Of a stretch of 64,000 nucleotides of DNA, positions 4,497 through 22,508 are shown in pieces (position 1 is the stretch's first letter; each line of letters opens with the position of its first letter). The stretch spans positions 224,001 to 288,000 of the IMG/VR virus record IMGVR_UViG_3300037722_000745. One strand, given 5' to 3'. Source of the stretch: a virus (lineage: Duplodnaviria > Caudoviricetes). Below the pieces are notes generated by a model. The model did no database searches and was not told the DNA's origin. It was given only the letters and a program-made list of their open reading frames with translations. A program made the position numbers and the translations under genes.

Positions 4497-4544
4497 TGTC
4501 AGGACGTGGGATCGAACCACGCTGGCTTCCAAACAAGTCCTGAC
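4497..4544 (-). ncRNA. mini tRNA-like RNA (acceptor stem plus T-arm)
   Basis: GTCAGGA/TCCTGAC stem, CGTGG-TTCGATC-CCACG T-arm, only 16 nt between them. Confidence 0.6.
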
Positions 4545-4563
4545 GTCTCGCCGCAGCGAGCAA
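4545..4563. repeat. short-loop hairpin repeat (family B)
   Basis: GTCTCGCCGCAGCGAGCAA abutting the 5' end of the mini tRNA. Confidence 0.8.
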
Positions 4564-4592
4564 AGCAAATAGTTGTCTGGGGTGCAGACTAG

Positions 4593-4719
4593 CGGGGCTA
4601 TTGGGAGTCGAACCCAAGCTTGTAAGGACCAACAGCGTCTCGCTTGCACGAGAGAGGGTTGAACCTGGTTTGTTTCCTCGTTATTAGCAAGGTGACGGAC
4701 CGACCGTCTGTATAGCCCC
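4593..4719 (-). ncRNA. tRNA-like RNA with giant variable region (copy 1)
   Basis: GGGGCTA/TAGCCCC acceptor, two 5' hairpins, GCAA-tetraloop hairpin, CTTACAAGC motif, canonical T-arm. Confidence 0.7.
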
Positions 4720-4773
4720 AGTTCGGCCGGCCCAGACCATTCTGGACCGACCTTGGCGAGAAGAAGAAGACTC

Positions 4774-5346
4774 TCAAGTCCTAGTTACACCACCGGGATG
4801 CAATTCGAAACCAATTTTCTCCCCCGTGGCGAGAAATTCTTGGGCGGCCCTCGCCAAAAGGGTGGAAGCAACCCCTATGAAGGGTAAATGCTCACCGCCC
4901 TCGCAGGTAGCAGCCCCCGCCACGCCCTCGGAATCGATGATGAAGTTCTCGTCCCAGACAACCCGTCCGAAGGCCCCATCAGCCGCCAGGGCCCCATGCA
5001 GACACGGAATCTTGGAGTCCCGGGCGAAGCCCTGGACGAGCTGTCGTGAGGCAGCATTGTCCAAGCAATCGATGATCAAGTCGGTGTTGATGAGCAACTC
5101 CCGAACGTTGACCTCGGTGAGCTTGTGCGGCACGACCGTCGGCTTAAGACCGAACATAAACAACAGGGTTTGCCCGAGCGCCTGAGCCTTGTTCTTACCC
5201 ACGCTCGGCTTGCCGTGGAATTGGGCCAGGGTGTTCTTCTGTTCCACCCGGTCGAAGTCGATGATCTTGAGGTCGGCCTCACCCCGGAGGAACAAGGCCA
5301 AGTGGGAGCCTAGAGCGCCGGCTCCAACGATGGTTACGTACTTCAT
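4774..5346 (-). CDS. E1/ThiF-family ubiquitin-like adenylating enzyme
   Basis: VTIVGAGALGS nucleotide-binding motif, IIDFDRVEQKN, IIDCLDN, candidate catalytic Cys in AATCEG. Confidence 0.9.
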   Translation of the reverse strand: MKYVTIVGAGALGSHLALFLRGEADLKIIDFDRVEQKNTLAQFHGKPSVGKNKAQALGQTLLFMFGLKPTVVPHKLTEVNVRELLINTDLIIDCLDNAASRQLVQGFARDSKIPCLHGALAADGAFGRVVWDENFIIDSEGVAGAATCEGGEHLPFIGVASTLLARAAQEFLATGEKIGFELHPGGVTRT

Positions 5347-5365
5347 AGCGACCTCCTTGCGCTCT

Positions 5366-5800
5366 TTATCGCTTTGGCAAAAAGCGCCTAGATTCATTCA
5401 TGGCGTTTTCGTACTGACGCCATTGCACCAGCTCTTTGAGGTACTCAGCGATGCGTTCCTTGTTCGCTGGATGGTCAAGTTGTATGCCATCCTTAGTAAT
5501 CAACTCGACTACCTCATCCAGAGAGTGGTTCTCTGCTAACTTAGACACAGAACCGAAGGGGACCTTCGGCCTCAGTTGGATCAAGTTGTACGGACGAGCC
5601 TCGTTTGCCGAGAATCGGTCCACCACGAAATCCGTCAGGTCCACCTCCTGTGCGTCGATGCCGGGGATACCGCCCCGCAAGGCTTCAGAGACCCACCCTC
5701 GTACATCCCCGTCCGTTGAATCGAACGCCACCGGGTCCGGCAGGTCACCATTCTGACCGCCGTAGGTGACGTTCACCTTGGCTTCGTGTTCTGCGATCAT
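5366..5800 (-). CDS. ubiquitin-like protein (83 aa ending PKVPFG) with 61-aa C-terminal extension
   Basis: Beta-grasp-like pattern, Gly-ending motif at codon 5552-5554, position between JAB and E1 genes. Confidence 0.7.
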   Translation of the reverse strand: MIAEHEAKVNVTYGGQNGDLPDPVAFDSTDGDVRGWVSEALRGGIPGIDAQEVDLTDFVVDRFSANEARPYNLIQLRPKVPFGSVSKLAENHSLDEVVELITKDGIQLDHPANKERIAEYLKELVQWRQYENAMNESRRFLPKR

Positions 5801-6201
5801 GTTATACCTCCTTGTGATCCAATCTTAGGCAGCCCCGACTCTCGCCGAAGCTGTTCCATCCAGGGGGGCTTGTACAGTGCAGGTCCCTTGCGGTAATCCA
5901 AGCGTCCCGGACCGACCCAACATAATTCGCAGAATCGATCCGCCGTAGTGATCCACCAGACAAGACGCTTACCCAAAGCCGCTTCAACCGCGTGGAAGGT
6001 CGTCACATCCTCATAGGACGGGCCGGGCTCTCCAAACCCCGGGTGACTGTGAGCGAAACCCAGGACGCGCTCCCGGTGCTCCCAGATGACATCCCACAGC
6101 TCGCGGCTGTCGGGAAGGCTCCCCACGGTTCGACCCGCGGGATTGTGCCAGTAGATCGGGTTGCAATCCAGATCCACCAAAACTCCAGCTTCGACGCTCA
6201 T
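5797..6201 (-). CDS. JAB/MPN+ metallopeptidase
   Basis: E...HSHP...PSYED JAMM motif; in frame with an upstream Zn-ribbon ORF to 6459. Confidence 0.85.
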   Translation of the reverse strand: MSVEAGVLVDLDCNPIYWHNPAGRTVGSLPDSRELWDVIWEHRERVLGFAHSHPGFGEPGPSYEDVTTFHAVEAALGKRLVWWITTADRFCELCWVGPGRLDYRKGPALYKPPWMEQLRRESGLPKIGSQGGIT

Positions 6202-6459
6202 GTGATTCCCCGTGTTCTCCATTGTGCGGACCACTGAATGCACTGACCCAAACGGATCCACATAGCGACCCGGGTAGTCAGGATGTGTAGGGAGTTTGCC
6301 CTCCGAACAGTCGTATTGAGGATCCTCCGACCACCCGCAGTTAGAACAACCCCAAGGGCCGTAAATGACCCCAACCCCCACGTCGACCGAATCCTGCCTA
6401 CAGGGCTCGCTGCATTCCGGACATTTTAACTCTTGATGGTCCACTCGGTCTTCTCCCAT
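6202..6459 (-). CDS. Zn-ribbon hypothetical module read in frame into the JAB gene
   Basis: CPEC...WGCSNCGW; no stop before the JAB start. Confidence 0.5.
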
Positions 6460-6608
6460 TCAGCCACGCAGTCGAGGCAGAAACTGTCTTTGCCAGCCTC
6501 CTTCGAGTAGTCTGACGCTGCGAGCCACCGATGTGCCGACGGCCACGAGTTTGGCTCACCTGCGCCGCATAGTGCCAACCCGTGCCAAAGAAGGTGGACA
6601 ACCCTCAC
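6426..6608 (-). CDS. hypothetical protein
   Basis: ORF with 4-bp overlap to upstream gene. Confidence 0.45.
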   Translation of the reverse strand: MRVVHLLWHGLALCGAGEPNSWPSAHRWLAASDYSKEAGKDSFCLDCVAEWEKTEWTIKS

Positions 6609-6910
6609 AGCGACTGGACCTTCCAGTCGTCGAGATTACAGCCCTCGGGACCGTGTTCAATGATCTGCCTCACATGTCCGGGGCCAAACGGTACCTTGTG
6701 GTTGAAGGCAGCACCGCCCTCGAACTGGTCGTACTCATCTTGATCGGTCCATCGCCGCGACGTGCAGGTGAACTGCGTCGCCGCCCCGCCGCTGAGATCT
6801 TGGATCGTCAGCTTCAGTACCTTGGGGGTCCAGCCCTTGGTTCGCGGGGTGATCGCCCAATGGTACGTCGTACCCATGAACTCTAGTTTGCGTCCCTTGT
6901 GCAGTGCCAT
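6605..6910 (-). CDS. hypothetical protein
   Basis: Start MALHKG at 6910; track ORF over-extended. Confidence 0.6.
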   Translation of the reverse strand: MALHKGRKLEFMGTTYHWAITPRTKGWTPKVLKLTIQDLSGGAATQFTCTSRRWTDQDEYDQFEGGAAFNHKVPFGPGHVRQIIEHGPEGCNLDDWKVQSL

Positions 6911-6912
6911 CG

Positions 6913-7863
6913 CTAACCCACATGCCGAAACACTACAAGACGACCTTCCCGCTCCGCCTGGCGAATGACCGGCGGCAGAGATTCTAAACTCAACCAAGCA
7001 TCCCCGCGGGTGCCGCCCGCAAAATCCGTGTCGTCGTAGTGTGCCGTCAGACAGATGCCCGCGTCGATGATCTGTAGAGTCCGAGCGTCGCATGTGCACT
7101 CGTAACGCCGCCCACCCATCCGGAACCGCACGACCATCTCGTTGCGTCGCGGGGCCTGCCGGTGATCGAGATACTCAGCCTCACCAACCGCGAGAGCCGC
7201 CCGAGCCGCGGTCCCGAAATCCTCTTGGGCCAACGCCCGCCGGCCAGCACCATCACCGAGCTGCTCCGCGATCTCCCGACGACGGGTTTCCCGCTGCCGT
7301 TCCTCTTCCTCACGCTGAAGGCGTTCCGCCAGCTCCCGCCGACGCCGCTCCGCCTCCAACCGCCGCCACCGCTCAAGCGTGAAGGCGACATCCAAAGCCG
7401 GCGACACCTCTCGGATATCAGCTAGCGTATCCTTGCCGTCCAGAAAGGCCGTCTGCACCTCGAACTCGGGCCCCAGAGGCATTTCTTGCTGGATGTAGAC
7501 CAACGGGCCGTCCTCGGACACGCGGCCCGCAGAGACCCGTACGAAGCGATCTAGGCCCGGTTCGATGAGATGGACCCGCTCCGTCTCGCTCTTAAAGGAG
7601 GCGAGCTTCCTTTGCGAAGCCGACACGAGCCGATCGCCGACCAGGTAGCCTACCTCTCGGTACTTGAGCTGCTCCGGCTCGGGATCACACACCTCCTGGA
7701 CCCGAGCCGTCCGACCGCCCACCGAGAACCGAACCCAGCCATGCTCCGCCGGCAGCCGACCCTCGATCACCCACCGACGTGGGCCCGACCGGAGGGACCT
7801 ACCCCCAATCCAAGGCGCGACAAGCGTCTCGCCTTCAGTCGCAAGTAAGTCTCTCCAACCCAT
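6913..7863 (-). CDS. conserved protein of the Ubl operon (coiled coil, Cys-containing C-terminal domain)
   Basis: Start MGWRDLL; charged coiled coil; RYECTCD...DAGICL; 5' part paralogous to 8330..8713. Confidence 0.75.
   Translation of the reverse strand: MGWRDLLATEGETLVAPWIGGRSLRSGPRRWVIEGRLPAEHGWVRFSVGGRTARVQEVCDPEPEQLKYREVGYLVGDRLVSASQRKLASFKSETERVHLIEPGLDRFVRVSAGRVSEDGPLVYIQQEMPLGPEFEVQTAFLDGKDTLADIREVSPALDVAFTLERWRRLEAERRRRELAERLQREEEERQRETRRREIAEQLGDGAGRRALAQEDFGTAARAALAVGEAEYLDHRQAPRRNEMVVRFRMGGRRYECTCDARTLQIIDAGICLTAHYDDTDFAGGTRGDAWLSLESLPPVIRQAEREGRLVVFRHVG
7583..7618. repeat. solitary CRISPR-repeat-like unit (family A) inside a CDS
   Basis: GTCTCGCTCTTAAAGGAGGCGAGCTTCCTTTGCGAA. 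Confidence 0.8.
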
Positions 7864-8084
7864 GGCCCAGCCACCTATTACACCGATTAGGCTGCCAGCA
7901 AACAACCAAAACGAAGGGATTCGCCCCATCAAAGTGGAATTACTACCACTGTCACGGCGTCCAAATTTTGGTTTGGGATGTCACATGAGGGTTAATTAAA
8001 CACCCTGATTTCAACGACGTGTTGGGTTTGGCCTACTTCCTGCAAGCCTGGCGGAGCCCTCCTGGGGCCAAAATGGAGATGAAA

Positions 8085-8300
8085 ATGAAAGACACAGAAC
8101 GCCTGCTGCCCTGGAACCAACACGGCGACATTCACCACACGTTCACGAACAAAGGGTCTGGAATTGTCTACCCGCACGACGAAGGCTTCCACTGGGAAGT
8201 TTTTGGTGGTGGAGACAGCTCCTGGCACGACCAGGCGGAATCTCTACACTCAGCTAAAGCCCACGTAGAAGGCACCTTTGTGGGTCGCGGCCTGATTTAG
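8085..8300 (+). CDS. hypothetical protein (opposite-strand insert)
   Basis: GGAG then ATG at 8085. Confidence 0.55.
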   Translation: MKDTERLLPWNQHGDIHHTFTNKGSGIVYPHDEGFHWEVFGGGDSSWHDQAESLHSAKAHVEGTFVGRGLI

Positions 8301-8329
8301 ATCGACAAGCGGGGCGTCGTCTAATTTCA

Positions 8330-8713
8330 CTACCAGACGACGCCCCCACCTCGTTTTTCAAGCCGGCCCGCAGAGACCCGTACAAAGCGATCTAGGCCCG
8401 GTTCGATGAGATGGACCCGCTCCGCAGCACGGAGAACCTCCCCGTCCGCTTGTCCAGCCTGAACCGAGGACGGTACGAGGCGATCTCCAACGAGATAGCC
8501 AACCTGCCTGTGCCACAGGCTTTCTAACTCAGGTTCGGCCAGAGCCTTGACCTGAGCCTTACGTCCCTCCAACGCAAACTCAATCCAGCCATGCTCTACA
8601 GGAAGGCTCCCCTCGATGACCCAGCGACGGGAGCCCGACCGGAGGGACCGGCCCCCAACCCAAGGTGCGACAATCGTCTCACCTTCTTTCTGAAGTAGGG
8701 TCCTCCAAGTCAT
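8330..8713 (-). pseudogene. truncated 5' duplicate of 6913..7863
   Basis: MTWRTLLQKEGETIVAPWVGGRSLRSG...ERVHLIEPGLDRFVRVSAGR then unrelated tail. Confidence 0.75.
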
Positions 8714-9642
8714 GACTCTCCAACCCTAATCTTCCAGGACTCCAAACTCTCACCACGTCTTCTACGTCGGGCCAACTTCAGTCTTGCTTCGGGGGTACTA
8801 AGAGCCTTCGTTATAGCCTCGCTATGTTTGGCTTTAACTTCGGGGATACTGAGTGTCTGGGCTATAGCCCTACCGCGTTTCTCTTTCTCCCCAGGTTGAG
8901 CCCATTGGCCTTTCATCCTACGACTCATAGCGGCCAGCCGTTCCAAAGTCATTGATGCTTGAACACCAATCTTATGGCGCTTCTTCACCTCAGGTAGGGC
9001 CAGTCTCTTAGCTGCCTCAATGCTTAGCTTCTTTCGCACCTCACTTGTATACCCGGCTTTTTGAAGCTTGATGCGTTGCCCCCTTTCCTCGGCCGAGTAC
9101 CCAGCCCAAGATGCCTTAAGACCCGCACTACGTTTCTCCTTCTCACCGGGTCTGGAGTAAACCTCCAACATCTTAGCTCTACGACGAGCTTTAGAATCAG
9201 GTTGACTGCAGGCCAAGATCAACGCTTCACGGTGCCTAGCCTTTACGTCGGGCCGTGCCATAGCTAACTTTACCCCAGCACTGTTCTTAGCTCGAACCTC
9301 CGGCCTATTCTGAGCCTCTTTCCCAGACACCGACATTTTCCGTCGAGTCTCTGCCGAAGGCTTCCCGTTTGACCCACCTGTCTTCAGATTGTACCCAAGC
9401 GGAGACAGAGAGGTGGCCACCCATTTAATTTCCAGCGCATCCAATTCCTCTTTCGAGGATGCCTCACCAACGACCTCAAACACGAATTTGTCTCGGCCAT
9501 ACTTGGCGATAGCCGCCCGCAAAGCGTGGCAATGGCTGTCAGTCCTGAAATGATGTGACCACCTCTCCGAAGGGTTGATGGTTTGACCGTGGTAACATTT
9601 TCCGCTGACCAAACAACGAATCCTGTAAACCAAACCGTACAC
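8710..9642 (-). CDS. GIY-YIG homing endonuclease with NUMOD3-like repeats
   Basis: GLVYRIRC...YHGQT...R...E..GYN; SAETRRKMS-type basic repeats. Confidence 0.9.
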   Translation of the reverse strand: MYGLVYRIRCLVSGKCYHGQTINPSERWSHHFRTDSHCHALRAAIAKYGRDKFVFEVVGEASSKEELDALEIKWVATSLSPLGYNLKTGGSNGKPSAETRRKMSVSGKEAQNRPEVRAKNSAGVKLAMARPDVKARHREALILACSQPDSKARRRAKMLEVYSRPGEKEKRSAGLKASWAGYSAEERGQRIKLQKAGYTSEVRKKLSIEAAKRLALPEVKKRHKIGVQASMTLERLAAMSRRMKGQWAQPGEKEKRGRAIAQTLSIPEVKAKHSEAITKALSTPEARLKLARRRRRGESLESWKIRVGES

Positions 9643-9652
9643 AACCGCAGTT

Positions 9653-11590
9653 TTAGCAAAAGGCTGCTGGCTTCTGCAACAGATCCGTCTTGAGAATGGT
9701 TTCCACGAGGGTTACTCGCGGAGCGGCCTTTACCACTGCCCTACCTACCGGCGTGGCAGCGATCATGGCTCGGATGGTAGGCGGGATCGCGTAGGGATCC
9801 GCGAAGATCCCCTCGTCGATCATGAAGCACGGGATGCCGAGTTGGGCTGCCGTGTCCGTGACCGCGTGGTACATGGGGGAGCTGCGGACCTTCAAGAAGC
9901 CAAATGCAATCGGGTTGAGGCCCGAAGCTTGGACCGCCTTATGGAACGGGCCAGCCTCCTCATCTCCGACGAAGATAAACAACACATCCTCGTCCGGCTG
10001 AGGCTTATGTTGATTGAGAGCCCGAACCCCCGCTCCGTAGTCAGTCCCTCCTCCTGCATGGATCCCGCGGAACGCCTGTTCGACGCCCGCTGCGGATTCA
10101 TGCTTAAGGGCAATCTCTCGCCCCGTAGTGTTGAAGACCGAGATGTGCACCTGGTCCTTGGGGAAGCCCTGTAGGAACTTCGCCAAGTAGCGCTTGGCTT
10201 CGGTGATCGCGTTCTGCATGGATCCCGAGATGTCCACCATGAAGTAGATCCGCAAACCCTTCACGACTTCCTCGACCGCCGCCTTGAGGGCGTTGTCGGC
10301 CGCCTCGTTCAGCTTCTCTTGGGTCGCCTTCGACCGCACTCGGGTCGCGATGTTCGCTGCCCGCATGTCGTCGGCTTCCTTAGTGGCACACTCCCACCGC
10401 TCTCGAATCTCCTGGACCTCAAGAAGTCCAAGCTCTTCGAGCGTTGGGGTTGCGATCAAAAGGTCCTTGTTGGAAAGAGACCCTGCCTCGATGGCTGCCG
10501 CCACAATCGCCCGCGTCAGCCCCATACCCTTCGGCAGGAGCCCCACGATGCGCTTGAAGTTAGGCTTGGTCGCAACGATAGTCTCGCAGACCTGCTCCTC
10601 CGAAAGGCCCTCCCAGGACTCCGCAGCCTTGACAGCCTGGCCGATGGCGACGGTACGGTGACCCTCGTCGGCCTGCTGCTGCCCCCACCGCAGCGTCTCG
10701 AAGAACTTTGGTGAGGTCGGCTTGTACCGGCAGGCGATGGCGAGTTCGATCACCTTCGTCCGGAAGCCCGCCTTGACGAGGCCCTCCAACATCTGAGGGT
10801 TCTCTTCACGGTACCGGAGCCACTTCTCCGCCGCCTTGGGCCAACGACCCATGAACGGCCGACGAGCGGACTTGCCAAAGCCCAGCTCCCGGTTGATCTC
10901 GGCCACCTGCGGCAGCCGTAGGATGTCGTGGATCCGCATTAGAAGCTTGGGATCGAATGTCTTGATCTCGTTCTTCTGTTGTGCCCCGTCACCTTGAGAG
11001 CGGGACCGGGTGAGCAGCAGCATGGCCTCACCGACATCCCGGTAATCCTCGTCGAAGAACAGGACCTTGCCGTTCTCAACAACCGGGTCACCCTTGCGGT
11101 ATTGCACGAGCATGAACGCCGCGAGAATGACCTTCAGGTCCCGGTGCTCCTGCCCGAATGCGTAGCTGGCCCACTTGGCGGCGAACTCGTTGTCGAGCTT
11201 CCAGACCTCGGCGACCTGCTTGTACATCCAGATCACGACCTCCGGGTAGAGGCCGGGCGGCTGGTAGCGACCAACAGCGCGGTTGCCGTCCTTAACGATG
11301 ACATCGCCCTGAAGCACTGGGGCGAGCGTCGCGGGGTTCCGACCCGTGGTCATCTTCCCGAGCTTGACCTTGGTGCCCTTCCGACGGCCCACGCCCTTGC
11401 GAAGCTCGTAGACGATCTTGTCGCCCTCTTCCTCTGCGTGGGTCACCGGCAGCCACTTCGTGCCCACCACGGAGCCAGGATCTGGAATCACTACGCCTGG
11501 TCGGTTGTGCATTGCGTGATCAGAATACGAGAGGACCGTCTGGAGGATTCTCTCAGCCGGCCCGAGTGCGTTCTGTTCGTGATTTGGCAC
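9653..11590 (-). CDS. vWA-domain protein with large helical N-terminus (possibly TROVE/Ro60-like)
   Basis: MIDAS motif FMVDISGSM, GGTDY, FVGDEE; GTG start at 11590 after GAGG. Confidence 0.8.
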   Translation of the reverse strand: MPNHEQNALGPAERILQTVLSYSDHAMHNRPGVVIPDPGSVVGTKWLPVTHAEEEGDKIVYELRKGVGRRKGTKVKLGKMTTGRNPATLAPVLQGDVIVKDGNRAVGRYQPPGLYPEVVIWMYKQVAEVWKLDNEFAAKWASYAFGQEHRDLKVILAAFMLVQYRKGDPVVENGKVLFFDEDYRDVGEAMLLLTRSRSQGDGAQQKNEIKTFDPKLLMRIHDILRLPQVAEINRELGFGKSARRPFMGRWPKAAEKWLRYREENPQMLEGLVKAGFRTKVIELAIACRYKPTSPKFFETLRWGQQQADEGHRTVAIGQAVKAAESWEGLSEEQVCETIVATKPNFKRIVGLLPKGMGLTRAIVAAAIEAGSLSNKDLLIATPTLEELGLLEVQEIRERWECATKEADDMRAANIATRVRSKATQEKLNEAADNALKAAVEEVVKGLRIYFMVDISGSMQNAITEAKRYLAKFLQGFPKDQVHISVFNTTGREIALKHESAAGVEQAFRGIHAGGGTDYGAGVRALNQHKPQPDEDVLFIFVGDEEAGPFHKAVQASGLNPIAFGFLKVRSSPMYHAVTDTAAQLGIPCFMIDEGIFADPYAIPPTIRAMIAATPVGRAVVKAAPRVTLVETILKTDLLQKPAAFC

Positions 11591-11635
11591 GATCCACCTC
11601 TCTCGCAACCCTCCGCATGGGAGGGGAATTGCCGC

Positions 11636-11654
11636 GTCTCGCCTCAGCGAGCAA
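11636..11654. repeat. short-loop hairpin repeat (family B)
   Basis: GTCTCGCCTCAGCGAGCAA in the 5' leader of the vWA gene. Confidence 0.8.
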
Positions 11655-14573: not shown

Positions 14574-14609
14574 GTCCCACTCTTGATGGAGGTGGGCTTC
14601 CCTTACCAT
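14574..14609. repeat. solitary CRISPR repeat (family A)
   Basis: First 28 nt identical to the array repeat at 19755. Confidence 0.9.
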
Positions 14610-14720: not shown

Positions 14721-14732
14721 AAAACTACCGCC

Positions 14733-15418: not shown

Positions 15419-15422
15419 AAGG

Positions 15423-15506: not shown

Positions 15507-15512
15507 AAAGAG

Positions 15513-15595
15513 CGGAAAGAGAGGGAGTCGAACCCTTGCCGTTGCCGACAACCGGTTTTCGAAGCCGGCGGCCCACCACTGAGCCTTCACCTTCC
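15513..15595 (-). tRNA. tRNA-Ser(CGA)
   Basis: Loop TTCGAAA, variable arm, G73; some stem mismatches. Confidence 0.75.
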
Positions 15596-15712
15596 AAGTG
15601 ATGCGATAGCCGCCACGAGTCCCCGTCGGCCACTGCAAACCGGCAGCCCCTGACAGAATCCTCGTTGACGACTTACCCGGGTTTACCCTCGCTCGAATCC
15701 ACACGAGGCGGG

Positions 15713-15786
15713 TGGTGGCGACGAGGGGACTTGAACCCCAGCCGACAGCCTTATGAGAGCCGCGTCCTAACCCGTAGGGCGTCGCC
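15713..15786 (-). tRNA. tRNA-Met(CAT), degenerate D-arm
   Basis: GGCGACG/CGTCGCC, loop CTCATAA, CCA. Confidence 0.7.
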
Positions 15787-15812
15787 GTGGTGGGGCCGAA
15801 GCCCCAAGCACA

Positions 15813-16019
15813 TCACCACCTCCACTGGATGCTGTGCCGATGTGCCCGATCATCAAAGTCATCGTACCTGCCGTGCCAGATCAGTCGGAGTTCCCTGGCT
15901 CGGTGTCCCTTCCAAAAGAACCGCCGGTCATCTCGGGGGCTCCGAGCCGCCCAATTGGAACCTTGGCCTTCCCGATTGGGGCTGTGCCGTCCGTTCTTAC
16001 GTCGATGATTCCGTCGCAT
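15813..16019 (-). CDS. Arg-rich hypothetical protein
   Basis: GGAGG RBS upstream. Confidence 0.55.
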   Translation of the reverse strand: MRRNHRRKNGRHSPNREGQGSNWAARSPRDDRRFFWKGHRARELRLIWHGRYDDFDDRAHRHSIQWRW

Positions 16020-16050
16020 GTCGCCTCCAGGTTCAAAGACCTAAAGGCGG

Positions 16051-16523
16051 CTCTCCTCTCGTGATCAGCATCTTGCTGCTCCTTGTTGGTTTTGACGGTG
16101 GAACGTCGCCAAAAACTCTCTTATAGGGCACCCTGCCTAAGGAGCCCCACCCCATGGATCCCAACCGCATCATCCACAGATACCTAACAGCAGCATCCTC
16201 GGTCATGACGTGGCCAAAGTTAAAAGGCCACCTCATCAAGCTCACTAAACCCGTTTCTGTGAGCAAGGGTAAGCCAGGAAGGAAGAAGGTGAAATTCGAC
16301 AAAGGTGTTACCTTTGTGATGACTGGGGGAGTTGTGAAAGGCACCCTTTTGGAGTCCCACCTCTTTGAAGCCACCCTTGAAGGCGACCATTATTGGATCC
16401 AATCAAACATACATCCCTTTGGGATGTACCCGCATAAATTCATGACAAAAGGCGGTAAGGAACTAGGTCCTGAGTTCTTCGCTCAGTGATCCTCTCCTCT
16501 CGTGATCAGATCTTGCTGCTCCT
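16051..16523. repeat. ~33-bp direct repeats (16051-16083, 16492-16523) flanking an opposite-strand gene
   Basis: CTCTCCTCTCGTGATCAG(C)ATCTTGCTGCTCCT twice. Confidence 0.8.
16154..16489 (+). CDS. hypothetical (putative virion) protein
   Basis: AAGGAG RBS; N-terminus MDPNRIIHRYLTAA. Confidence 0.75.
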   Translation: MDPNRIIHRYLTAASSVMTWPKLKGHLIKLTKPVSVSKGKPGRKKVKFDKGVTFVMTGGVVKGTLLESHLFEATLEGDHYWIQSNIHPFGMYPHKFMTKGGKELGPEFFAQ

Positions 16524-16529
16524 ACCTAG

Positions 16530-16603
16530 CGCCTCTGGAAGGATTCGAACCTTCAAGCTTCGGTTTCGTAGACCGACGATCTGTCCAATTGATCTACAGA
16601 GGC
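16530..16603 (-). tRNA. tRNA-Arg(ACG)
   Basis: Cloverleaf, loop CTACGAA. Confidence 0.9.
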
Positions 16604-16618
16604 ATTCGTTTTTAGAGG

Positions 16619-16694
16619 CACCCCCGGGAGGACTCGAACCTCCGCATGACCCGGCTTCGGAGGCCGGCGCTCTGTCCAACTGAGCTACGAGGGC
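16619..16694 (-). tRNA. tRNA-Arg(CCG)
   Basis: Cloverleaf, loop CTCCGAA. Confidence 0.85.
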
Positions 16695-16798
16695 TTGTGG
16701 TGATTTGCCATTCGCGTGCGGGATCAACCACCAACCCGTAGACGCACTCGTAGGTCGTTCCTACGCGCAATCACCACGCTACGGTGCCGAAACACCGG

Positions 16799-16871
16799 CA
16801 CTCCCGACAGGACTCGAACCTGCATGATCCTGGTTAGAAGCCAGGCGCCTATCCAGTTAGACTACGGGAGC
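16799..16871 (-). tRNA. tRNA-Arg(TCT)
   Basis: Cloverleaf, loop CTTCTAA. Confidence 0.9.
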
Positions 16872-16875
16872 ATTG

Positions 16876-16911
16876 GTCTCACTCTAGAGGGAGGTGAGCT
16901 TCCCTCGCAAC
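16876..16911. repeat. solitary CRISPR-repeat-like unit (family A)
   Basis: GTCTCACTCTAGAGGGAGGTGAGCTTCCCTCGCAAC, 4 nt upstream of tRNA-Arg(TCT). Confidence 0.85.
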
Positions 16912-16944
16912 TACAACACACCGAAGGCACGCCGGCAGAGCCTT

Positions 16945-17022
16945 TGGAGGCGCAGGCGGGACTCGAACCCACGAAAATACCTGTTTTGCAGACAGGCCCC
17001 TTAGCCGCTTGGGTACTGCGCC
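16945..17022 (-). tRNA. tRNA-Cys(GCA)
   Basis: Loop CTGCAAA, U73, CCA. Confidence 0.9.
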
Positions 17023-17067
17023 GAAACCTTCACCTACTAGAAGACGAGAACGCCGAAGCGTTACAAG

Positions 17068-17138
17068 TGCGCGTGGAGGGGATCGAACCCTCATCTGCTG
17101 GGTGGAAGCCAGCTATCCTACCATTGAACGACACACGC
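17068..17138 (-). tRNA. tRNA-Gly(TCC)
   Basis: Loop CTTCCAC; discriminator is A rather than the usual U. Confidence 0.85.
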
Positions 17139-17214
17139 TTATGCCCCGTAGTTGGCGGCCTCCCAAGGCAAAAGTCAGAACTCACAAGGCGGCGGAAGCT
17201 GTACTTCTCTCAGC

Positions 17215-17442
17215 TTAGGAGGTCTTTGTGTGTCTTTTGTACTGACCGGAATTGGCTCCGTATTCACGTTTGATCCAATTAGCAGGTCCTATTTTCAAGG
17301 CACCCTTGACTTGGCCCGAGTTCGCACCGAACTCTTTCTTGATCCACGCCAAGGCTTTAGCGTCTTGTTCCTTCGTATGCGCTGCTGTTCGAAGAGCTAG
17401 CTCGACAAGCTTCGTAGCAATTTCGACCCTACTGGGATTCAC
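17215..17442 (-). CDS. hypothetical protein with internal repeat
   Basis: WIK(K/R)E(F/Y)GANSGQ occurs twice. Confidence 0.65.
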   Translation of the reverse strand: MNPSRVEIATKLVELALRTAAHTKEQDAKALAWIKKEFGANSGQVKGALKIGPANWIKREYGANSGQYKRHTKTS

Positions 17443-17585
17443 GCCTTGGCTGTAGGCAAGAATTTAACGAAGCTCAGACTGTAACTCTTGAGGGGTCGAA
17501 ATTTTGCGCATAACACCATAGAAAAGCCATAAATGGCTTAGCAGCTTACCTTGAAGGCTGGCACCCAGGACATCGAACTCGAAGC

Positions 17586-17864
17586 TTATGGGGAGCAACC
17601 CCACATGGAAAGAGTGTTCGGGATCCTCTGCGCATGCTCGGGCCAATCCTTGAACTTGTCGCCGTAGTTCTCTCGACACAACCGAGTGATCGCGATGTGA
17701 GAACTGAGACACACAGACATGATCTTACGCGTCTCCCTGGCACTCAATCCAGAAGCCGTAGGCCCAGACCTCCACAGAGCCGACAACTCCTCCTCACTAA
17801 GAGGAGCTTCCAGACTCCCTCCCAAATCGGACAAGGAAGCGTCAATATCCGCTGTAGAGGCCAT
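17586..17864 (-). CDS. hypothetical protein
   Basis: Start MASTAD; track ORF extends through tRNA. Confidence 0.5.
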   Translation of the reverse strand: MASTADIDASLSDLGGSLEAPLSEEELSALWRSGPTASGLSARETRKIMSVCLSSHIAITRLCRENYGDKFKDWPEHAQRIPNTLSMWGCSP

Positions 17865-17937
17865 CTCTCGGGTTTTTGATTGTGTTTCTGATGGGCGGAA
17901 TATACACCGCAGGCAGCATGCCCCCGAGCGCCCAAAG

Positions 17938-18028
17938 CGGAAGCCGGAGAACTCGAATCCCAAACGACCCCGAGAGGCCGTTCCCACCGCTTTCCAAGCG
18001 GGTCCAGTCCCTAACTGGTTCAGCTTCC
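17938..18028 (-). tRNA. tRNA-Ser(GGA)
   Basis: Loop TTGGAAA, long variable arm, G73, atypical D-arm. Confidence 0.75.
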
Positions 18029-18050
18029 AAGGGGAGCCTGTTGAGGGAAT

Positions 18051-18158
18051 CGTCTCGCCGCAGCGAGCAATGAGTGCATGACTACACCAAGCCAACAAGC
18101 GCTGATGGAAGCAGGCCAGTTGCGTGACTACGTAGTGGACCTGTCGGGAGTTGAACCC
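18051..18158. repeat. 108-bp cassette, copy 1 (family B hairpin, GGTGTA motif, tRNA-Ala 3' end)
   Basis: Matches 19438..19545 with 2 mismatches. Confidence 0.9.
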
Positions 18159-18212
18159 CGATCCCGGTTACCACCGTACCAAGGTGGTGCTCTGCCACTG
18201 AGCTATACGGGC
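18136..18212 (-). tRNA. chimeric tRNA-Thr(GGT) with tRNA-Ala-derived 3' end
   Basis: 5' GCCCGTA does not pair with 3' CAGGTCC, which is identical to the tRNA-Ala end at 19523-19545. Confidence 0.7.
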
Positions 18213-18548
18213 GTTGAACCGAAAGACAACCCTCTCTCTAGCTTGCCTCCTAGACTCCATATCGCGTAAGGCATGCCTCAGAATTTGAAGGTTGACGATC
18301 GCATCGTAAAGCTCCCGCTCCTTCGCTCCGCTGTCTATAAGCCTCTCTAGTTTATCGATCTCTCGTCGGATCCGATTCCGATCTTGCAAACGCTTAGGGA
18401 GCCGCAAGCCTGTGGTCCGATCCTGACGCTCAACCTTCCTAAGTTGCTGCTCGATATAGTCCACCTCTTTTGGGGTCAAGGATCGAGGCAGTAGTCCAGG
18501 CCGAGGGAAAGTCACCTCAAAAGGACGGTCCGGTTTGGGTACCGGCAT
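18168..18548 (-). CDS. hypothetical coiled-coil protein
   Basis: ORF adjoining upstream gene; tail reads into tRNA. Confidence 0.6.
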   Translation of the reverse strand: MPVPKPDRPFEVTFPRPGLLPRSLTPKEVDYIEQQLRKVERQDRTTGLRLPKRLQDRNRIRREIDKLERLIDSGAKERELYDAIVNLQILRHALRDMESRRQARERVVFRFNARIAQWQSTTLVRW

Positions 18549-19054
18549 CAGATCTGACCTAACACCTTTCGAACCAACCGCATGAACGTCAGTCCAGCGA
18601 GTTCAGGATCTGTGCTGAATGCGGTCTCCGTGATAGACCGTTTGAAGTCAGCTCCGCTCAAGGGTTTGTGAGGCACATACCCGAACGAAAGTAACGGAAG
18701 ACCGCCCCGGATTGACAACATCAACGTGAAGGTCTCCAAAGCGGGTCGAGTGGAGAAGTAGTAGTACAGCTTCATCCGCTGCTGGGTAGCATTCATGTAG
18801 AAACGATCGCCATGGAACTTCCGCCTGAATGCTGAAAGGGCCTTGGGTAAGAGGATCTCGATAGACAACTTGGCCGCATCAAAGACCTCTTGCGCAGACG
18901 TTGGCACCCCGACTTCAGGAGGACCCCAACGAGCTTGCCGGGCCATCCTCTCGGACCACGGAACGACCCATGACGGGATTTCCGGCTGCCAGTCCCCAAG
19001 GGCTACCTGGTAACCCCACCTGGCCGCCACGCGCTTTGCAAGAGTACCCATCAC
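18548..19054 (-). CDS. hypothetical (putative virion) protein
   Basis: N-terminus LAKRVAARW. Confidence 0.7.
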   Translation of the reverse strand: MMGTLAKRVAARWGYQVALGDWQPEIPSWVVPWSERMARQARWGPPEVGVPTSAQEVFDAAKLSIEILLPKALSAFRRKFHGDRFYMNATQQRMKLYYYFSTRPALETFTLMLSIRGGLPLLSFGYVPHKPLSGADFKRSITETAFSTDPELAGLTFMRLVRKVLGQI

Positions 19055-19084
19055 CTCGTGCAGTGTGATGGGTAGATTAGTGAG

Positions 19085-19158
19085 GCTACCTGACGGGACT
19101 CGAACCCGCTCTCACCGGACCCACAATCCGGCCGCCATCCTATCGGCGCTCAGGCAGC
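19085..19158 (-). tRNA. tRNA-His(GTG)
   Basis: Loop TTGTGGG, G-1 and C73. Confidence 0.85.
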
Positions 19159-19258
19159 AGAAGTATCACAACGGTCCCGGGCCGGGTGCGACGAGCTAGC
19201 CACACGCGCCGAGTAGCTAGCTCGGACGCGCTGCGTTCTGTGCCCCGTTGTGACACGG

Positions 19259-19341
19259 TGCGAACGAGAGGAGTCGAACCTCCACGACCTCGCGATCAGC
19301 TGGGTTTGAGCCAGCCGCGTCTGCCATTCCGCCACGTTCGC
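19259..19341 (-). tRNA. tRNA-Leu(CAA)
   Basis: Loop CTCAAAC, long variable arm. Confidence 0.9.
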
Positions 19342-19355
19342 GTGAGCACTACTCA

Positions 19356-19391
19356 GTCTCGCTCTTAGGGGAGGCGAGCTTCCTTTGATCC
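19356..19391. repeat. solitary CRISPR-repeat-like unit (family A)
   Basis: GTCTCGCTCTTAGGGGAGGCGAGCTTCC, 14 nt upstream of tRNA-Leu(CAA). Confidence 0.85.
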
Positions 19392-19437
19392 CATACAGGA
19401 AATCCTTCTTGCAAGCTACGGTGCTGGAGACAGGAGT

Positions 19438-19545
19438 CGTCTCGCCGCAGCGAGCAATGAGTGTATGACTACACCAAGCCAACAAGCGCTGATGGAAGCA
19501 GGCCAGTTGCGTGACTACGTGGTGGACCTGTCGGGAGTTGAACCC
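19438..19545. repeat. 108-bp cassette, copy 2
   Basis: See 18051..18158. Confidence 0.9.
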
Positions 19546-19591
19546 GCAAACTCTCCTTGCAAGGGAGAGCCCTGACCCGTCAGACAAGCCC
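19520..19591 (-). tRNA. tRNA-Ala(TGC), reduced D-arm
   Basis: Loop CTTGCAA, G3:U70, CCA. Confidence 0.75.
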
Positions 19592-19595
19592 ATTT

Positions 19596-19676
19596 AGGTC
19601 CGAGGCGAATTGTCGACTCCGCGTCTCCAGCTTCCGTACGCAATAGCTGGCGCTCTAACACTGAGCTACTCGAACC
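19596..19676 (-). ncRNA. tRNA-like RNA with 14-nt anticodon loop
   Basis: 8-bp GGTTCGAG/CTCGGACC stem, normal D-arm, CCAGC-TATTGCGTACGGAA-GCTGG, altered T-loop. Confidence 0.55.
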
Positions 19677-19678
19677 AG

Positions 19679-19750
19679 CGGAGCCGAGGGGACTCGAACC
19701 CCCCTCACTGGCGTGACAAGCCAGCCGCCTCACCCGATGCGTACGGCTCC
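19679..19750 (-). tRNA. tRNA-Asp(GTC)
   Basis: GGAGCCG/CGGCTCC, loop TTGTCAC region, G73. Confidence 0.85.
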
Positions 19751-19754
19751 GTAA

Positions 19755-20009
19755 GTCCCACTCTTGATGGAGGTGGGCTTCCGTTGTGACCGTGCGGATT
19801 TCGGAGATGACGCTGAAGCCGTCATCGGTCCCACTCTTGATGGAGGTGGGCTTCCGTTGTGACTTCGCTCCGATCGCAATCCCGCAGGATCGCGACCAGC
19901 CGTCCCACTCTTGATGGAGGTGGGCTTCCGTTGCTGCCAGGCAGGACGGCTCGAAGTGGCTAAGATGATGTTGGTCCCACTCTTGATGGAGGTGGGCTTC
20001 CGTTGCTGC
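19755..20009 (-). CRISPR. CRISPR mini-array, 4 x 36-nt repeats, 3 spacers (37, 38, 36 nt)
   Basis: Repeat GTCCCACTCTTGATGGAGGTGGGCTTCCGTTG(TGA/CTG)C at 19755, 19828, 19902, 19974; orientation inferred from leader position and tRNA strand. Confidence 0.95.
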
Positions 20010-20170
20010 AGTGCGCTCAAAAAGACCTAAAATTTCCAAAGAGCTGAGAGCCGGATTGCGAGAGCCTCTGCAAACTCCCGCTAAATCCGACTCCATGGAG
20101 AGTACTACACTGTTCACAGAGAGCGCAAGACCCTAAATTCATTGTCTTGCGAGCGATCCCCGGGCTCCAG
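20010..20170 (-). promoter_or_regulatory. putative CRISPR leader
   Basis: Non-coding, AT-richer, near-IHF-consensus ATTCATTGTCTTG. Confidence 0.55.
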
Positions 20171-20356
20171 GCGTCACCGAGGCTCTCGCGTTCCGATGCC
20201 GTCCAACAAGGAAACTCCACGTCCCGGCGAAGAGTTGAGAGCATGGGCAGTACCGTGCCCACAAGGGCCAGTCCTCTCGCTCAACCCCGCGAAGTCGAGC
20301 TGTTTCAGGAATGTGACACGGGTTTTGGTTGATGCTGGCCAAACATGACTACCCAG

Positions 20357-20432
20357 TGGAGCCGGCGGGGATCGAACCCGCCGCAAAGCCGCATTGCAAG
20401 TGCAGCTCGCCCCCGCCAACCGATACGGCTGA
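20357..20432 (-). tRNA. tRNA-Ala(TGC)-like, first two acceptor pairs broken
   Basis: Loop CTTGCAA, T-arm normal, TCAGCCG/CGGCTCC. Confidence 0.6.
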
Positions 20433-20440
20433 GGGGTATC

Positions 20441-20833
20441 TCACCGAAGAGATGACGGCTCATAAAGTGTCAATAGCTCCTTTGCCCAATCTACGAGGTC
20501 CGACACCCTCGCGCCGGTAGGTTGCGGACTTCGCCACAACTCCAGGTTGCACGGTCTGTTGTCGTCCCTAACCCCGTTCTTGTGGTGTACCGTCTCACCC
20601 GGCAAGAGATAGCGGCCAAGGACTTCCTCCATCACAAGGATGTGCTCAAACACGTACGGACCGCTTGTAGCCCTAGGGTGCAGCGGAACTCGCCGCATCA
20701 CGTATCGAATCGGATCGCCGCACCCAAGGCAGGGTACCTTTGGGAGAGATCGCCGCCGACACATCGGGCATTTCCGATGTCTGCTACTTGGTGTGAAAAG
20801 TCTGCAACACGAGCTACAAGTTTTGACAGCCAT
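20441..20833 (-). CDS. HNH homing-type endonuclease with N-terminal Zn fingers (apparent internal deletion)
   Basis: YVFEHILVME..LGRYL...ETVHHKNGVRDDNRPCNLELW. Confidence 0.85.
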   Translation of the reverse strand: MAVKTCSSCCRLFTPSSRHRKCPMCRRRSLPKVPCLGCGDPIRYVMRRVPLHPRATSGPYVFEHILVMEEVLGRYLLPGETVHHKNGVRDDNRPCNLELWRSPQPTGARVSDLVDWAKELLTLYEPSSLR

Positions 20834-20896
20834 TAGTCACCGAGACAGTCTCGGCGTGCAGGGTACACCACGTGCAGGTTGCCATCTTCGTACCCT

Positions 20897-21295
20897 TGGA
20901 CTCGGTGGGAATCGAACCCACGTCCTAGAAAGCTATCGAACAGCGTCTACGTGCGTAGCGTGACTTCGGACTCGGTTAAGGTCGTGCCCATGCCTCACGC
21001 CGGCTTCCACCTGGGGCGTGACTGGTTTTCCAGTCTTGCCTCCACCACCGATCTAGCGACCTAAGGTCTTGCGACCCGTTTCCCACAGCCAATCGGACTC
21101 TGTGGTGCAGCCCTGCGTTTACTTACGCCGCTCGAAATCGAAGCAGGGAATCTACCCCGAGCGACGGCTCAGGCAGCCTGAGCAAAGCCGTTATAGTTGG
21201 CTTTTCTTGTTTGGTCGGCTTGATAACCCGGCCTGCTGACCAACCGGGGCACGCTGCTGCTCGAATTACCTCCCAGTCGAAACCTTTACGAGCCC
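20897..21295 (-). ncRNA. ssrA: tmRNA
   Basis: GGGCTCG/CGAGTCC acceptor with G3:U70, GGTTTCGAC 5' motif, T-arm, tag ORF ANYNGFAQAA-stop at 21201..21169. Confidence 0.95.
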
Positions 21296-21324
21296 TAAAT
21301 CTGTCATCGCATACACCAAAAGTC

Positions 21325-21399
21325 TGGAGCCCCTTCCCGGAATCGAACCGAGTTATCTGGTTTACAAGACCAGCGCATCACCAACTATGCTTAAGGGGC
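21325..21399 (-). tRNA. tRNA-Thr(TGT)
   Basis: Cloverleaf, loop CTTGTAA, CCA. Confidence 0.9.
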
Positions 21400-21605
21400 T
21401 TAGCTACGCCAGCAGAAAACGCTAGAGTTCTCACACCGGTCCGCACTCTAGCAGCGGCCCTACATACCCCGGGCCGCCAGCCTAGCTTGGCAGCCCACCA
21501 GGGGCCTGGTGTCAGGCGGGACGCCGTCCGAATACCTCAGAGCTTTTGACCGGGCTAGAGAGCCCAAGATGAGGGTCATCGTTCAGCATCGACCGGTGGA
21601 GAAAA

Positions 21606-21644
21606 TGGTAGCGACGGAGGGAGTCGTCTCGCCTCAGCGAGCAA
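21606..21644. repeat. family B hairpin (21626-21644) fused to a tRNA T-loop-to-CCA fragment (21606-21625)
   Basis: Minus strand TTGCTCGCTGAGGCGAGA-CGACT-CCCTC-CGTCGCT-ACCA. Confidence 0.8.
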
Positions 21645-21659
21645 TCAAGTTGGCGGCCA

Positions 21660-21763
21660 CCGCCAAAAGCCCCGTAAAGTTTAGCCCGCGTTCGAGATGA
21701 GCGACCTGGTTAGCGATTGCTTGTTTTCCGAACAAGTGCGTTTGCCAGTTACGCCACAAAGGC
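21660..21763 (-). ncRNA. 5' part of a giant-variable-region tRNA-like RNA (left boundary approximate)
   Basis: GCCTTTG, Leu-type D-arm, CTTGT-TCGGAAA-ACAAG, AACCAGGT motif shared with copy 1. Confidence 0.55.
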
Positions 21764-21768
21764 CGGAC

Positions 21769-21828
21769 GGCCTTCGACGGGACTCGAACCCGCATATGCA
21801 TGTAAGATCGTTCTGGCGGAACGCGAGC
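21769..21828 (-). ncRNA. 3' part of a giant-variable-region tRNA-like RNA
   Basis: CCGCCAG..CTTACATGC motif, T-arm, CGAAGGC acceptor strand. Confidence 0.6.
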
Positions 21829-21961
21829 TGGTGGGGAGTCTTGGAGTCGAACCAAGTTTGCTTGTAAGCGCCGCTGGCGGCTCCCTTGCGGGAGCGAGAG
21901 GCAGTGCTGGAGTATCGCTTTCGATTTACCGTCGAAATAGAGGCCAACCCTCCTACTCCCC
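21829..21961 (-). ncRNA. tRNA-like RNA with giant variable region (copy 2)
   Basis: GGGGAGT/ACTCCCC acceptor, ACCA end, two 5' hairpins, GCAA hairpin, CTTACAAGC, T-arm. Confidence 0.75.
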
Positions 21962-22068
21962 AGATGCCGGTGCTCACCACACCACCGTCGTCAACGCAAG
22001 GGACCGGCGCCCCTGTGAAGCTCTCTGGCGATGATGCAGTACCCTCTCTAATACACCAAAGAAGGCGG

Positions 22069-22140
22069 AGCAGGTAGAGGGAATCGAACCCTCGCCTCCA
22101 GCTTGGCAAGCTGGCATCCTACCGACTGGACGATACCTGC
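22069..22140 (-). tRNA. tRNA-Gly(GCC)
   Basis: Cloverleaf, loop TTGCCAA. Confidence 0.9.
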
Positions 22141-22141
22141 A

Positions 22142-22216
22142 TGGTCGGGGTGGCGGGAGTCGAACCCGCGACCTTCTGTCCCCCAGACAGACGCCCTTCC
22201 ACTGAGCTACACCCCG
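22142..22216 (-). tRNA. tRNA-Pro(GGG)
   Basis: Cloverleaf, loop CTGGGGG, CCA. Confidence 0.9.
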
Positions 22217-22236
22217 TTGTTTGGTTGCGGGAGCCG

Positions 22237-22272
22237 GTCTCGCTCTTTCAGGTGGCGAGCTACCACGGTTTT
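22237..22272. repeat. CRISPR-repeat-like unit (family A variant) between duplicated tRNA-fMet 3' ends
   Basis: GTCTCGCTCTTTCAGGTGGCGAGCTACC; GTTGCGGGAGCCGG at 22224 and 22281. Confidence 0.8.
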
Positions 22273-22281
22273 TCAAACCAG

Positions 22282-22353
22282 TTGCGGGAGCCGGAATCGA
22301 ACCGACGAGGCTTGGGTTATGAGCCCGAGTTGAGGGCCAACACTCTTCCCGCG
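22282..22353 (-). tRNA. tRNA-fMet(CAT), degenerate D-arm
   Basis: C1:A72 mismatch, GGG/CCC in anticodon stem, loop CTCATAA. Confidence 0.75.
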
Positions 22354-22354
22354 G

Positions 22355-22427
22355 TGGCCAGAGAGGGAATCGAACCCCCGACGCCTTCATCTTCAGCGAA
22401 GCGCTCTACCAACTGAGCTATCTGGCC
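22355..22427 (-). tRNA. tRNA-Phe(GAA)
   Basis: Cloverleaf, loop CTGAAGA. Confidence 0.9.
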
Positions 22428-22431
22428 GTTG

Positions 22432-22472
22432 TGGTGGGTCCTCTCGGGATCGAACCGAGTTCTCCGATTTTT
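22432..22472 (-). pseudogene. tRNA 3' half (anticodon loop to CCA)
   Basis: AAAA-ATCGG-AGAA-CTCGG-TTCGATC-CCGAG-AGGACCC-ACCA directly after a family A repeat. Confidence 0.75.
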
Positions 22473-22508
22473 GTCTCACTCTTGTAGGGGGTGAGCTTCC
22501 CTTACTCC
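22473..22508. repeat. solitary CRISPR-repeat-like unit (family A)
   Basis: GTCTCACTCTTGTAGGGGGTGAGCTTCC. Confidence 0.85.

Follow-up and report, generated by a model that had tools for sequence, protein, structure and literature searches.

Stand-alone copies of a CasΦ guide-RNA handle, three of them joined to tRNA 3' ends, in the tRNA island of a huge phage

We analysed a window of 64,000 nucleotides (nt), bases 224001-288000 of the 323-kb IMG/VR virus contig IMGVR_UViG_3300037722_000745 (estimated completeness 68%), which belongs to a huge phage and whose sequence is also present in soil and sediment metagenomes of many studies. Our subject is a short-loop hairpin that recurs among the transfer RNA (tRNA) genes of this window and in three places is joined to a tRNA 3' end. 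We are nearly certain that these hairpins are stand-alone copies of the guide-RNA handle of the phage's own CRISPR nuclease, CasΦ. The tRNA-tailed units may be orphan CRISPR RNAs (crRNAs) that are transcribed with the tRNA operon and guide CasΦ to foreign tRNA genes, a reading for which, judging from sequence, we consider the chances evenly balanced.

The core of the short-loop hairpin occurs in 16 exact copies genome-wide, all on the minus strand: seven in an array, two in a mini-array and seven solitary, with six of the solitary copies in the tRNA island of the window. A first-pass annotation of the window had listed six minus-strand copies starting at 976, 4545, 11636, 18052, 19439 and 21626, and a search with the pattern TTGCTCGCTG[C/A]GGCGAGAC returned exactly these six, all on the minus strand, where none were expected from 100 shuffles. 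The same annotation had described a short copy preceding a mini tRNA, three different tRNA tails joined to the hairpin at the same T-loop position, and long-loop copies followed by a T-stem-to-CCA tail or an anticodon-to-CCA half. All of these arrangements were recovered: the mini tRNA follows the 4545 handle, the shared junction is at tRNA position 57, and the tail and the half tRNA follow the long-loop units at 22237 and 22473. The junctions appear with no differences in Logan contigs from separate soil (2025) and sediment (2020) studies. Since these independently assembled contigs cover the junctions identically, the junctions are real and not assembly chimeras.

The seven-repeat array (genome 217705-218160) lies outside the window, about 6 kb from its low-coordinate end, and consists of a 36-nt repeat and 37-nt spacers, with copies 72-74 nt apart; the two-repeat mini-array is at genome 194554-194640. 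Directly upstream of the seven-repeat array and on the same strand is an open reading frame (ORF) of 718 aa, which matches CasΦ-2 (PDB 7lys) over residues 9-703 (E-value 2.3e-159) and is roughly 40-50% identical to it over the aligned stretch. By its sequence, this ORF is a CasΦ/Cas12j (type V-J) nuclease. It keeps the zinc-ribbon cysteines and the acidic residues of the IDLG, EDL and NADxD motifs, which we take to be those of the RuvC active site.

The short-loop hairpin is the 3' part (positions -19 to -1) of the 36-nt array repeat. The solitary copies are identical to the repeat over 19-21 nt, keeping positions -19 to -1 (in one copy, to -21) and differing upstream. One loop base varies among them, and the same base varies between the mini-array repeats. 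The short-loop copies fit the CasΦ handle plan of a G, a 5-bp stem with a 4-nt loop and a 3' AC, with U-18 and G-17 in place. In the CasΦ-3 structure paper, the protein contacts C-1 and U-18, and G-17 pairs with A-2. Because these contacts and this pairing fall within -18 to -1, the 19 nt that were retained represent the structured crRNA handle. No solitary copy comprises the full-length repeat, as 19-21 nt compare with 36 nt in the array and about 25 nt in experimental guides.

The repeats of four CasΦ homologues (36-49% identical) likewise end in GAT[TG]G, a 5-bp stem, a 4-nt loop, the stem's second strand and AC. Two of the four homologue loci also bear solitary, 5'-truncated handles, which match their own repeat and not that of the present phage. 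Solitary handles that track the local repeat argue, on sequence, for use with the cognate CasΦ rather than for a general phage motif. In the present phage, the solitary handles share their strand with cas12j, the 42 tRNA genes of the island and its transfer-messenger RNA (tmRNA) gene.

Tails T1, T2 and T3 follow the handles at 18052, 19439 and 21626, respectively. Their three junctions read GAGAC+GATTCCCTCAACAGGCTCC, GAGAC+GACTCCTGTCTCCAGCACC and GAGAC+GACTCCCTCCGTCGCTACCA, and position 57 of the tRNA is the first base of every tail. Complete tRNA genes have T54-T55-C56 directly before this position, and the phage locus has GAC of the repeat instead of TTC. T1 is identical to the phage's own tRNA-Gly(gcc) at 16 of 19 positions, including the U discriminator, and its guide stretch measures 23 nt up to the 5' end of tRNA-Ser(gga), which starts at 18028. 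Among the matches listed for T2 are tRNA-Thr(cgt)/Leu 3' ends of metagenome contigs, with 22/24 identity. TTC plus T3 forms an exact 22-mer in the tRNA-Met(cat) genes of 13 species genomes. None of the tails matches the phage's 42 own tRNAs over more than 11 contiguous nt.

The published protospacer-adjacent motif (PAM) is TTN for CasΦ-3, for which the assays used TTC, and TBN for CasΦ-2. Since the T-loop TTC fits these motifs, a complete tRNA gene with such a 3' end would present both a PAM and a protospacer. This would apply to T3, which is preceded by TTC in tRNA-Met genes, with the proviso that the published T-rich PAMs were measured on other CasΦ enzymes. The tail of the long-loop unit at 22237 starts at tRNA-fMet position 62, also right after TTC (GATTC). 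Four junctions after TTC, at two tRNA positions, would be hard to obtain by chance. Homology cannot have set the junction either, as the handle end and the T-loop share one base only.

Such units might work as follows. Each solitary handle and the approximately 20 nt that follow it would be transcribed within a tRNA precursor, as the units are oriented like the tRNA genes. CasΦ would bind the handle, and the unit would act as an orphan crRNA. In three units the guide would be a foreign tRNA 3' end (Gly-like, Thr/Leu-like and elongator Met) that starts after the T-loop TTC, and wherever an intact tRNA gene has this 3' end, its universally conserved TTC would offer CasΦ a PAM. Conserved tRNA genes, whether of the host or of rival phages, would thus be cut or bound by CasΦ, whereas GAC at the phage's own locus and mismatches in its own tRNA genes would spare its complete set of tRNAs.

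Guide ends could be provided by tRNA processing. Between the 18052 unit and tRNA-Ser lie 23 nt, and between the 22237 unit and tRNA-Pro 20 nt, so that RNase P cleavage at these tRNAs could leave guides of suitable length, 23 nt and 20 nt. Work in plants obtained the best editing with a single CasΦ-2 repeat plus spacer inside a longer transcript, with 20-nt spacers, and a downstream repeat is therefore not needed. A further-reaching proposal, which we advance tentatively, is that the phage hides guide units in its tRNA operon and lets tRNA-processing enzymes release them, with the T-loop TTC as PAM; this would permit broad, escape-proof cutting of host or rival DNA, while the phage's own mismatched tRNA set would take over translation. 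The first-pass annotation had likewise suggested crRNA-like units of repeat and tRNA. That part is borne out in that the hairpin is the handle of a real CRISPR repeat, its effector is encoded in the same genome, and TTC as PAM would explain the fixed junction. The host Cascade/Cas6 that it had named as partner gives way to the phage's own CasΦ.

Several observations weigh against orphan guides. The solitary copies, at 19-21 nt, are shorter than the 25-nt repeat part of synthetic CasΦ-2 guides. Other solitary handles are followed by non-tRNA sequence or lie just upstream of start codons, and three long-loop copies end 4-15 nt before full tRNAs, too close for a guide to fit in between. For the array spacers no protospacer turned up: GenBank phages gave no match with the array, IMG/VR gave none with one array spacer, and self-matches in the phage's own genome were at shuffle level. 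GenBank phages gave no match with the tRNA island either. The genomes that match T3 are from animal guts and not from soil hosts, and thus reveal the tRNA type only. Donor or target genes of T1 and T2 were not found in IMG/VR, metagenome and genome searches. IMG/VR contained no match to T1, T2 or T3, a metagenome pattern scan covering T1 and T2 had no exact match among the 120 stretches listed, and T1 was absent from 401 genomes of one phylum (up to two mismatches) and from three T3-carrying genomes (up to three mismatches). Finally, some junctions may be by-products of rearrangement, since the island is rich in tRNA fragments and holds a 113-nt duplication that includes the 18052 and 19439 units.

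The hairpins could also have a regulatory or processing role, in which handles bind CasΦ or another phage RNA-binding protein and the tRNA tails are incidental. In variants of this explanation they mark transcript 5' ends, process the tRNA precursor or, like crRNA-like cas regulators, direct non-cutting binding to part-matching sites in the phage's own genome. Handle-like hairpins are present at genome 126178, 143959 and 49890, at window 11636 and at L014:494 of another huge phage, each followed by a start codon after 16-47 nt, and at the long-loop copies that end 4-15 nt before full tRNAs, RNase P would leave no guide. Over a seed of 13 nt, the 22237 unit moreover matches the tRNA-fMet gene that lies 44 nt upstream, and the match comes with TTC. 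A search for a partial seed (about 11-15 nt) plus PAM found only this match and 11-nt T-arm matches of T3, with no site near cas12j; apart from matches due to tRNA conservation, own-genome matches of seed and T-rich PAM were at background. A regulatory role also leaves unexplained why three different foreign tails start exactly after TTC, and we consider it unlikely.

Functionless debris, that is, array and tRNA gene fragments shuffled by illegitimate recombination in a repeat-rich island, would account for the truncation of the solitary repeats. The island lies within 30 kb of the cas12j locus and contains at least ten additional tRNA fragments or pseudo-tRNAs. The first copy of the duplicated 113-nt cassette makes tRNA-Thr(ggt) chimeric (this tRNA-Thr scores only 33 bits); at the second copy, tRNA-Ala(tgc) has an acceptor stem paired at 7/7 positions, including G3-U70. 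Random shuffling does not predict, however, that all 19 handle positions are kept in every copy save one loop base while the flanks differ, nor that all copies are oriented with transcription. The single base shared by handle end and T-loop speaks against homology at the junctions, and other CasΦ phages bear solitary copies of their own handles. We think it improbable that the units are debris.

The first-pass annotation had offered, as its other reading, a very small, hairpin-bearing mobile element with tRNA T-loops as its insertion sites. In its favour, 13 nt of the tRNA-fMet 3' end occur as a direct repeat on either side of the 22237 unit, and the T-loop of tRNA-Thr(ggt) contains the cassette at 18046-18158; T1 pairs with the 5' strands of this tRNA at 9 of 12 positions. 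No other copy has flanking direct repeats, no terminal inverted repeats exist beyond the hairpin itself, empty-site alleles were absent from four runs, and T2 and T3 complete no upstream tRNA; among the tails, Thr(ggt) may be the one exception. As the hairpin is fully explained as a CRISPR repeat, a mobile element seems highly unlikely. We give equally little credence to decoys, guide-less RNAs that would sequester the CasΦ of a competitor phage or restrain that of the phage itself. Solitary repeat units of viruses are able to act as RNA anti-CRISPRs (Racrs; PMC10651486), and RNase P cutting at the mini tRNA would free the 4545 handle without a guide, but the handles match the repeat of the phage that itself carries the effector, and decoys give no reason for PAM-adjacent tRNA junctions. 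Like Racrs, the seven solitary exact copies are single repeats without a partner; Racrs belong to viruses without cognate cas genes, and this phage encodes CasΦ and an array.

Guides away from an array are reportedly also found in type V-K CRISPR-associated transposons, whose delocalised tRNA-homing crRNAs Saito et al. are said to have described in 2021. Like those, the present units would be type V guides with a spacer that matches a conserved tRNA gene. Here, in contrast, the nuclease motifs are intact, and the purpose would be cutting or binding and not transposon homing. The likeness to these homing guides, which the first-pass annotation had drawn, gained no support from transposon genes. 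Among tnsB, tnsC and tniQ only tniQ was searched, yielding one sub-threshold 16-bit TniQ-like match about 100 kb away, and the scanned island ORFs contained no Tn7-like transposition domains. Engineered polycistronic tRNA-gRNA arrays, reportedly described by Xie et al. in 2015, are similar in that guides lie between tRNAs and that RNase P and RNase Z could set their ends. They differ in that the present units are natural, their processing is predicted, and most of them are not tightly flanked by tRNAs.

Among the closest known systems is CasΦ/Cas12j (type V-J) of the huge 'Biggiephages', where phage spacers against host translation genes have also been described (Al-Shayeb et al. 2020, PMC7162821). 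Shared features are the effector length of about 720 aa, the position of a compact array with 36-nt repeats immediately behind the effector gene, a repeat ending in a 5-bp stem, a 4-nt loop and AC, the lack of Cas1 in the contig, and co-occurring type I-C-like arrays with repeats ending in ATTGAAAC, as in two phages of PMC7162821. What differs here, against the papers searched, are the handle-only solitary copies across the tRNA island and the tRNA 3' ends as candidate guides. Solitary repeat units and mini-arrays of viruses are also on record (Medvedeva 2019, PMC6858448; Racr RNA anti-CRISPRs, PMC10651486; crRNA-like regulators, PMC10120712), and have in common with the present units that single repeats or repeat-spacer units are virus-borne and lie outside a canonical array. 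The known units imitate host CRISPR systems, make use of them or regulate cas promoters, whereas here the cognate effector is the phage's own, and the units are 5'-truncated to the handle and lie among tRNA genes, three of them with tRNA-derived guides. The first-pass annotation had not recognised the arrangement as described. In the literature that we searched, this holds for a tRNA island in which CasΦ units reduced to the handle are scattered and tRNA 3' ends occupy the guide position. Viral solitary repeats or mini-arrays are already known, as are CasΦ in huge phages, compact phage arrays and the co-occurrence of type I-C-like arrays.

Should the units be active, guides encoded outside arrays would be able to arm a phage-borne CRISPR nuclease, 19-nt CasΦ handles may suffice for guide function, and tRNA genes would serve as a universal PAM-plus-target module. 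They would also represent a natural use of tRNA processing to release guide RNAs, and link the large tRNA sets of huge phages with compact CRISPR systems, until now discussed apart.

Table 1. Positions of the hairpin units, tails and other features (window coordinates unless marked genome)
Feature	Position	Strand	Remarks
Solitary CasΦ handle	976..994	-	exact pattern match; then tandem 15-nt duplication
Mini tRNA	4497..4544	-	8-bp acceptor stem and T arm, without D or anticodon arm
Solitary CasΦ handle	4545..4563	-	exact pattern match; mini tRNA directly after
Degenerate short-loop handle	4637..4652	-	CTCGT-GCAA-GCGAG-AC, one G-U pair
Solitary long-loop unit	7583..7614	-	
Solitary CasΦ handle	11636..11654	-	start of 645-aa VWA-domain ORF 45 nt downstream
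Solitary long-loop unit	14574..14605	-	
Solitary long-loop unit	16876..16907	-	ends 4 nt before tRNA-Arg(tct)
Guide position with tail T1	18029..18051	-	first 19 nt are a tRNA-Gly-like 3' end from position 57, discriminator U
Duplicated cassette, copy 1	18046..18158	-	113 nt: tRNA-Ala T-loop-to-3'-end, ~60 nt, then handle
Solitary CasΦ handle, joined to T1	18052..18070	-	identical to last 19 nt of 36-nt repeat
Solitary long-loop unit	19356..19387	-	51 nt after 19439 handle, 14 nt before tRNA-Leu(caa)
Tail T2	19420..19438	-	tRNA 3' end from position 57; acceptor strand CTCCAGC, discriminator A, CC
Duplicated cassette, copy 2	19433..19545	-	113 nt, 97% identical; native to tRNA-Ala(tgc)
Solitary CasΦ handle, joined to T2	19439..19457	-	exact pattern match
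Four-unit long-loop array	19755..20005	-	period 72-74, unique 41-nt spacers; last unit ends 4 nt before tRNA-Asp
Phage tmRNA	20897-21295	-	inside tRNA island; tag ANYNGFAQAA, Rfam 101 bits
Tail T3	21606..21625	-	elongator tRNA-Met 3' end, position 57 through CCA
Solitary CasΦ handle, joined to T3	21626..21644	-	TGAG loop variant, 21 nt identical to repeat
Stretch between 22237 unit and tRNA-Pro	22217..22236	-	20 nt; first 13 nt repeat the adjacent tRNA-fMet 3' end
Solitary long-loop unit	22237..22268	-	tail CGGCTCCCGCAACCA after unit
Anticodon-to-CCA half tRNA	22428..22472	-	follows 22473 unit, up to tRNA-Phe start
Solitary long-loop unit	22473..22504	-	then anticodon-to-CCA half tRNA
Solitary long-loop unit	22941..22972	-	
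Solitary long-loop unit	62419..62450	+	outside tRNA island
Four type I-C-like arrays (loci L160, L161)	genome 1-260, 61334-61810, 64596-65520, 120213-121200	+	~36-nt repeat ending GTAATTGAAAC, type I-C/I-B style
Weak TniQ-like match	genome 121287-121694	-	ORF of ~200 aa beside one type I-C-like array

The long-loop hairpins form a second family with a conserved unit of 32 nt, present as one four-unit array and at least ten solitary copies. They share with the short-loop family the frame of G, stem and AC, and the stem itself is identical in four copies. They differ in an 11-nt loop and in GGAAG in place of GATTG, and thereby depart from the CasΦ handle plan, with the longer loop and an A in place of U-18. 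The stem is paired in all 11 aligned copies, with compensatory changes at two of the five pairs, and one G-U pair is consistent with a minus-strand RNA. A search of IMG/VR with the long-loop repeat returned no other phage, and no effector for this family was found. On its sequence, the family represents a related hairpin. The stretch after the 22237 unit carries a CCA that the tRNA-fMet copy is without.

The short-loop copies without T1-T3 tails vary in what adjoins them. The mini tRNA after the 4545 handle folds with an energy of -28.8 kcal/mol (z -2.4), and the degenerate handle is followed by two-thirds of a tRNA, from the anticodon arm to the 3' end. The 645-aa ORF behind the 11636 handle was considered as a second effector and rejected, being a VWA protein. 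Right after the 976 handle, positions 945-975 hold a perfect tandem duplication of GGTCCTTTTAGGCAC. The solitary handles at genome 11450, window 18052 and window 19439 share an additional upstream block of 26 nt, GTTGGCTTGGTGTAGTCAYRCACTCA, which may be a promoter or a subfamily marker. A search of IMG/VR with the short handle gave one match, upstream of a gene in another huge phage; no CasΦ was found in that fragment, which is 44% complete. Peptide patterns identified no CasΦ relatives in IMG/VR.

None of Cas5d, Cas7, Csd1 and Cas1 was found in the contig, and the ORFs beside the type I-C-like arrays resemble virion genes. An Rfam scan of window positions 1-25000 matched no CRISPR-repeat family, and no sigma-70-like promoters were found in 17800-22700.

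The tRNA island occupies the first 24 kb of the window. Its 42 tRNA genes, which cover all 20 amino acids, and the tmRNA gene are all on the minus strand. At 4575-4640 and 21777-21900 are tRNA-like pieces with an anticodon-type loop (CTTACAA/CTTACAT, with TAC) and a T arm, which ARAGORN did not call; these may represent tRNA-Val genes, either unusual or decayed. Within the island lies a GIY-YIG homing endonuclease ORF (8710-9642), near a pair of 261-nt repeats (7615-7875 and 8465-8725) that are 70% identical. ThiF-like, JAB-like and VWA-domain ORFs are grouped among the tRNAs at 4774-6459 and 9653-11590 and could constitute a ubiquitin-like modification or counter-defence module. Farther along the window, an ORF of 1035 aa (27974-31081) has a DNA methyltransferase domain at each end.

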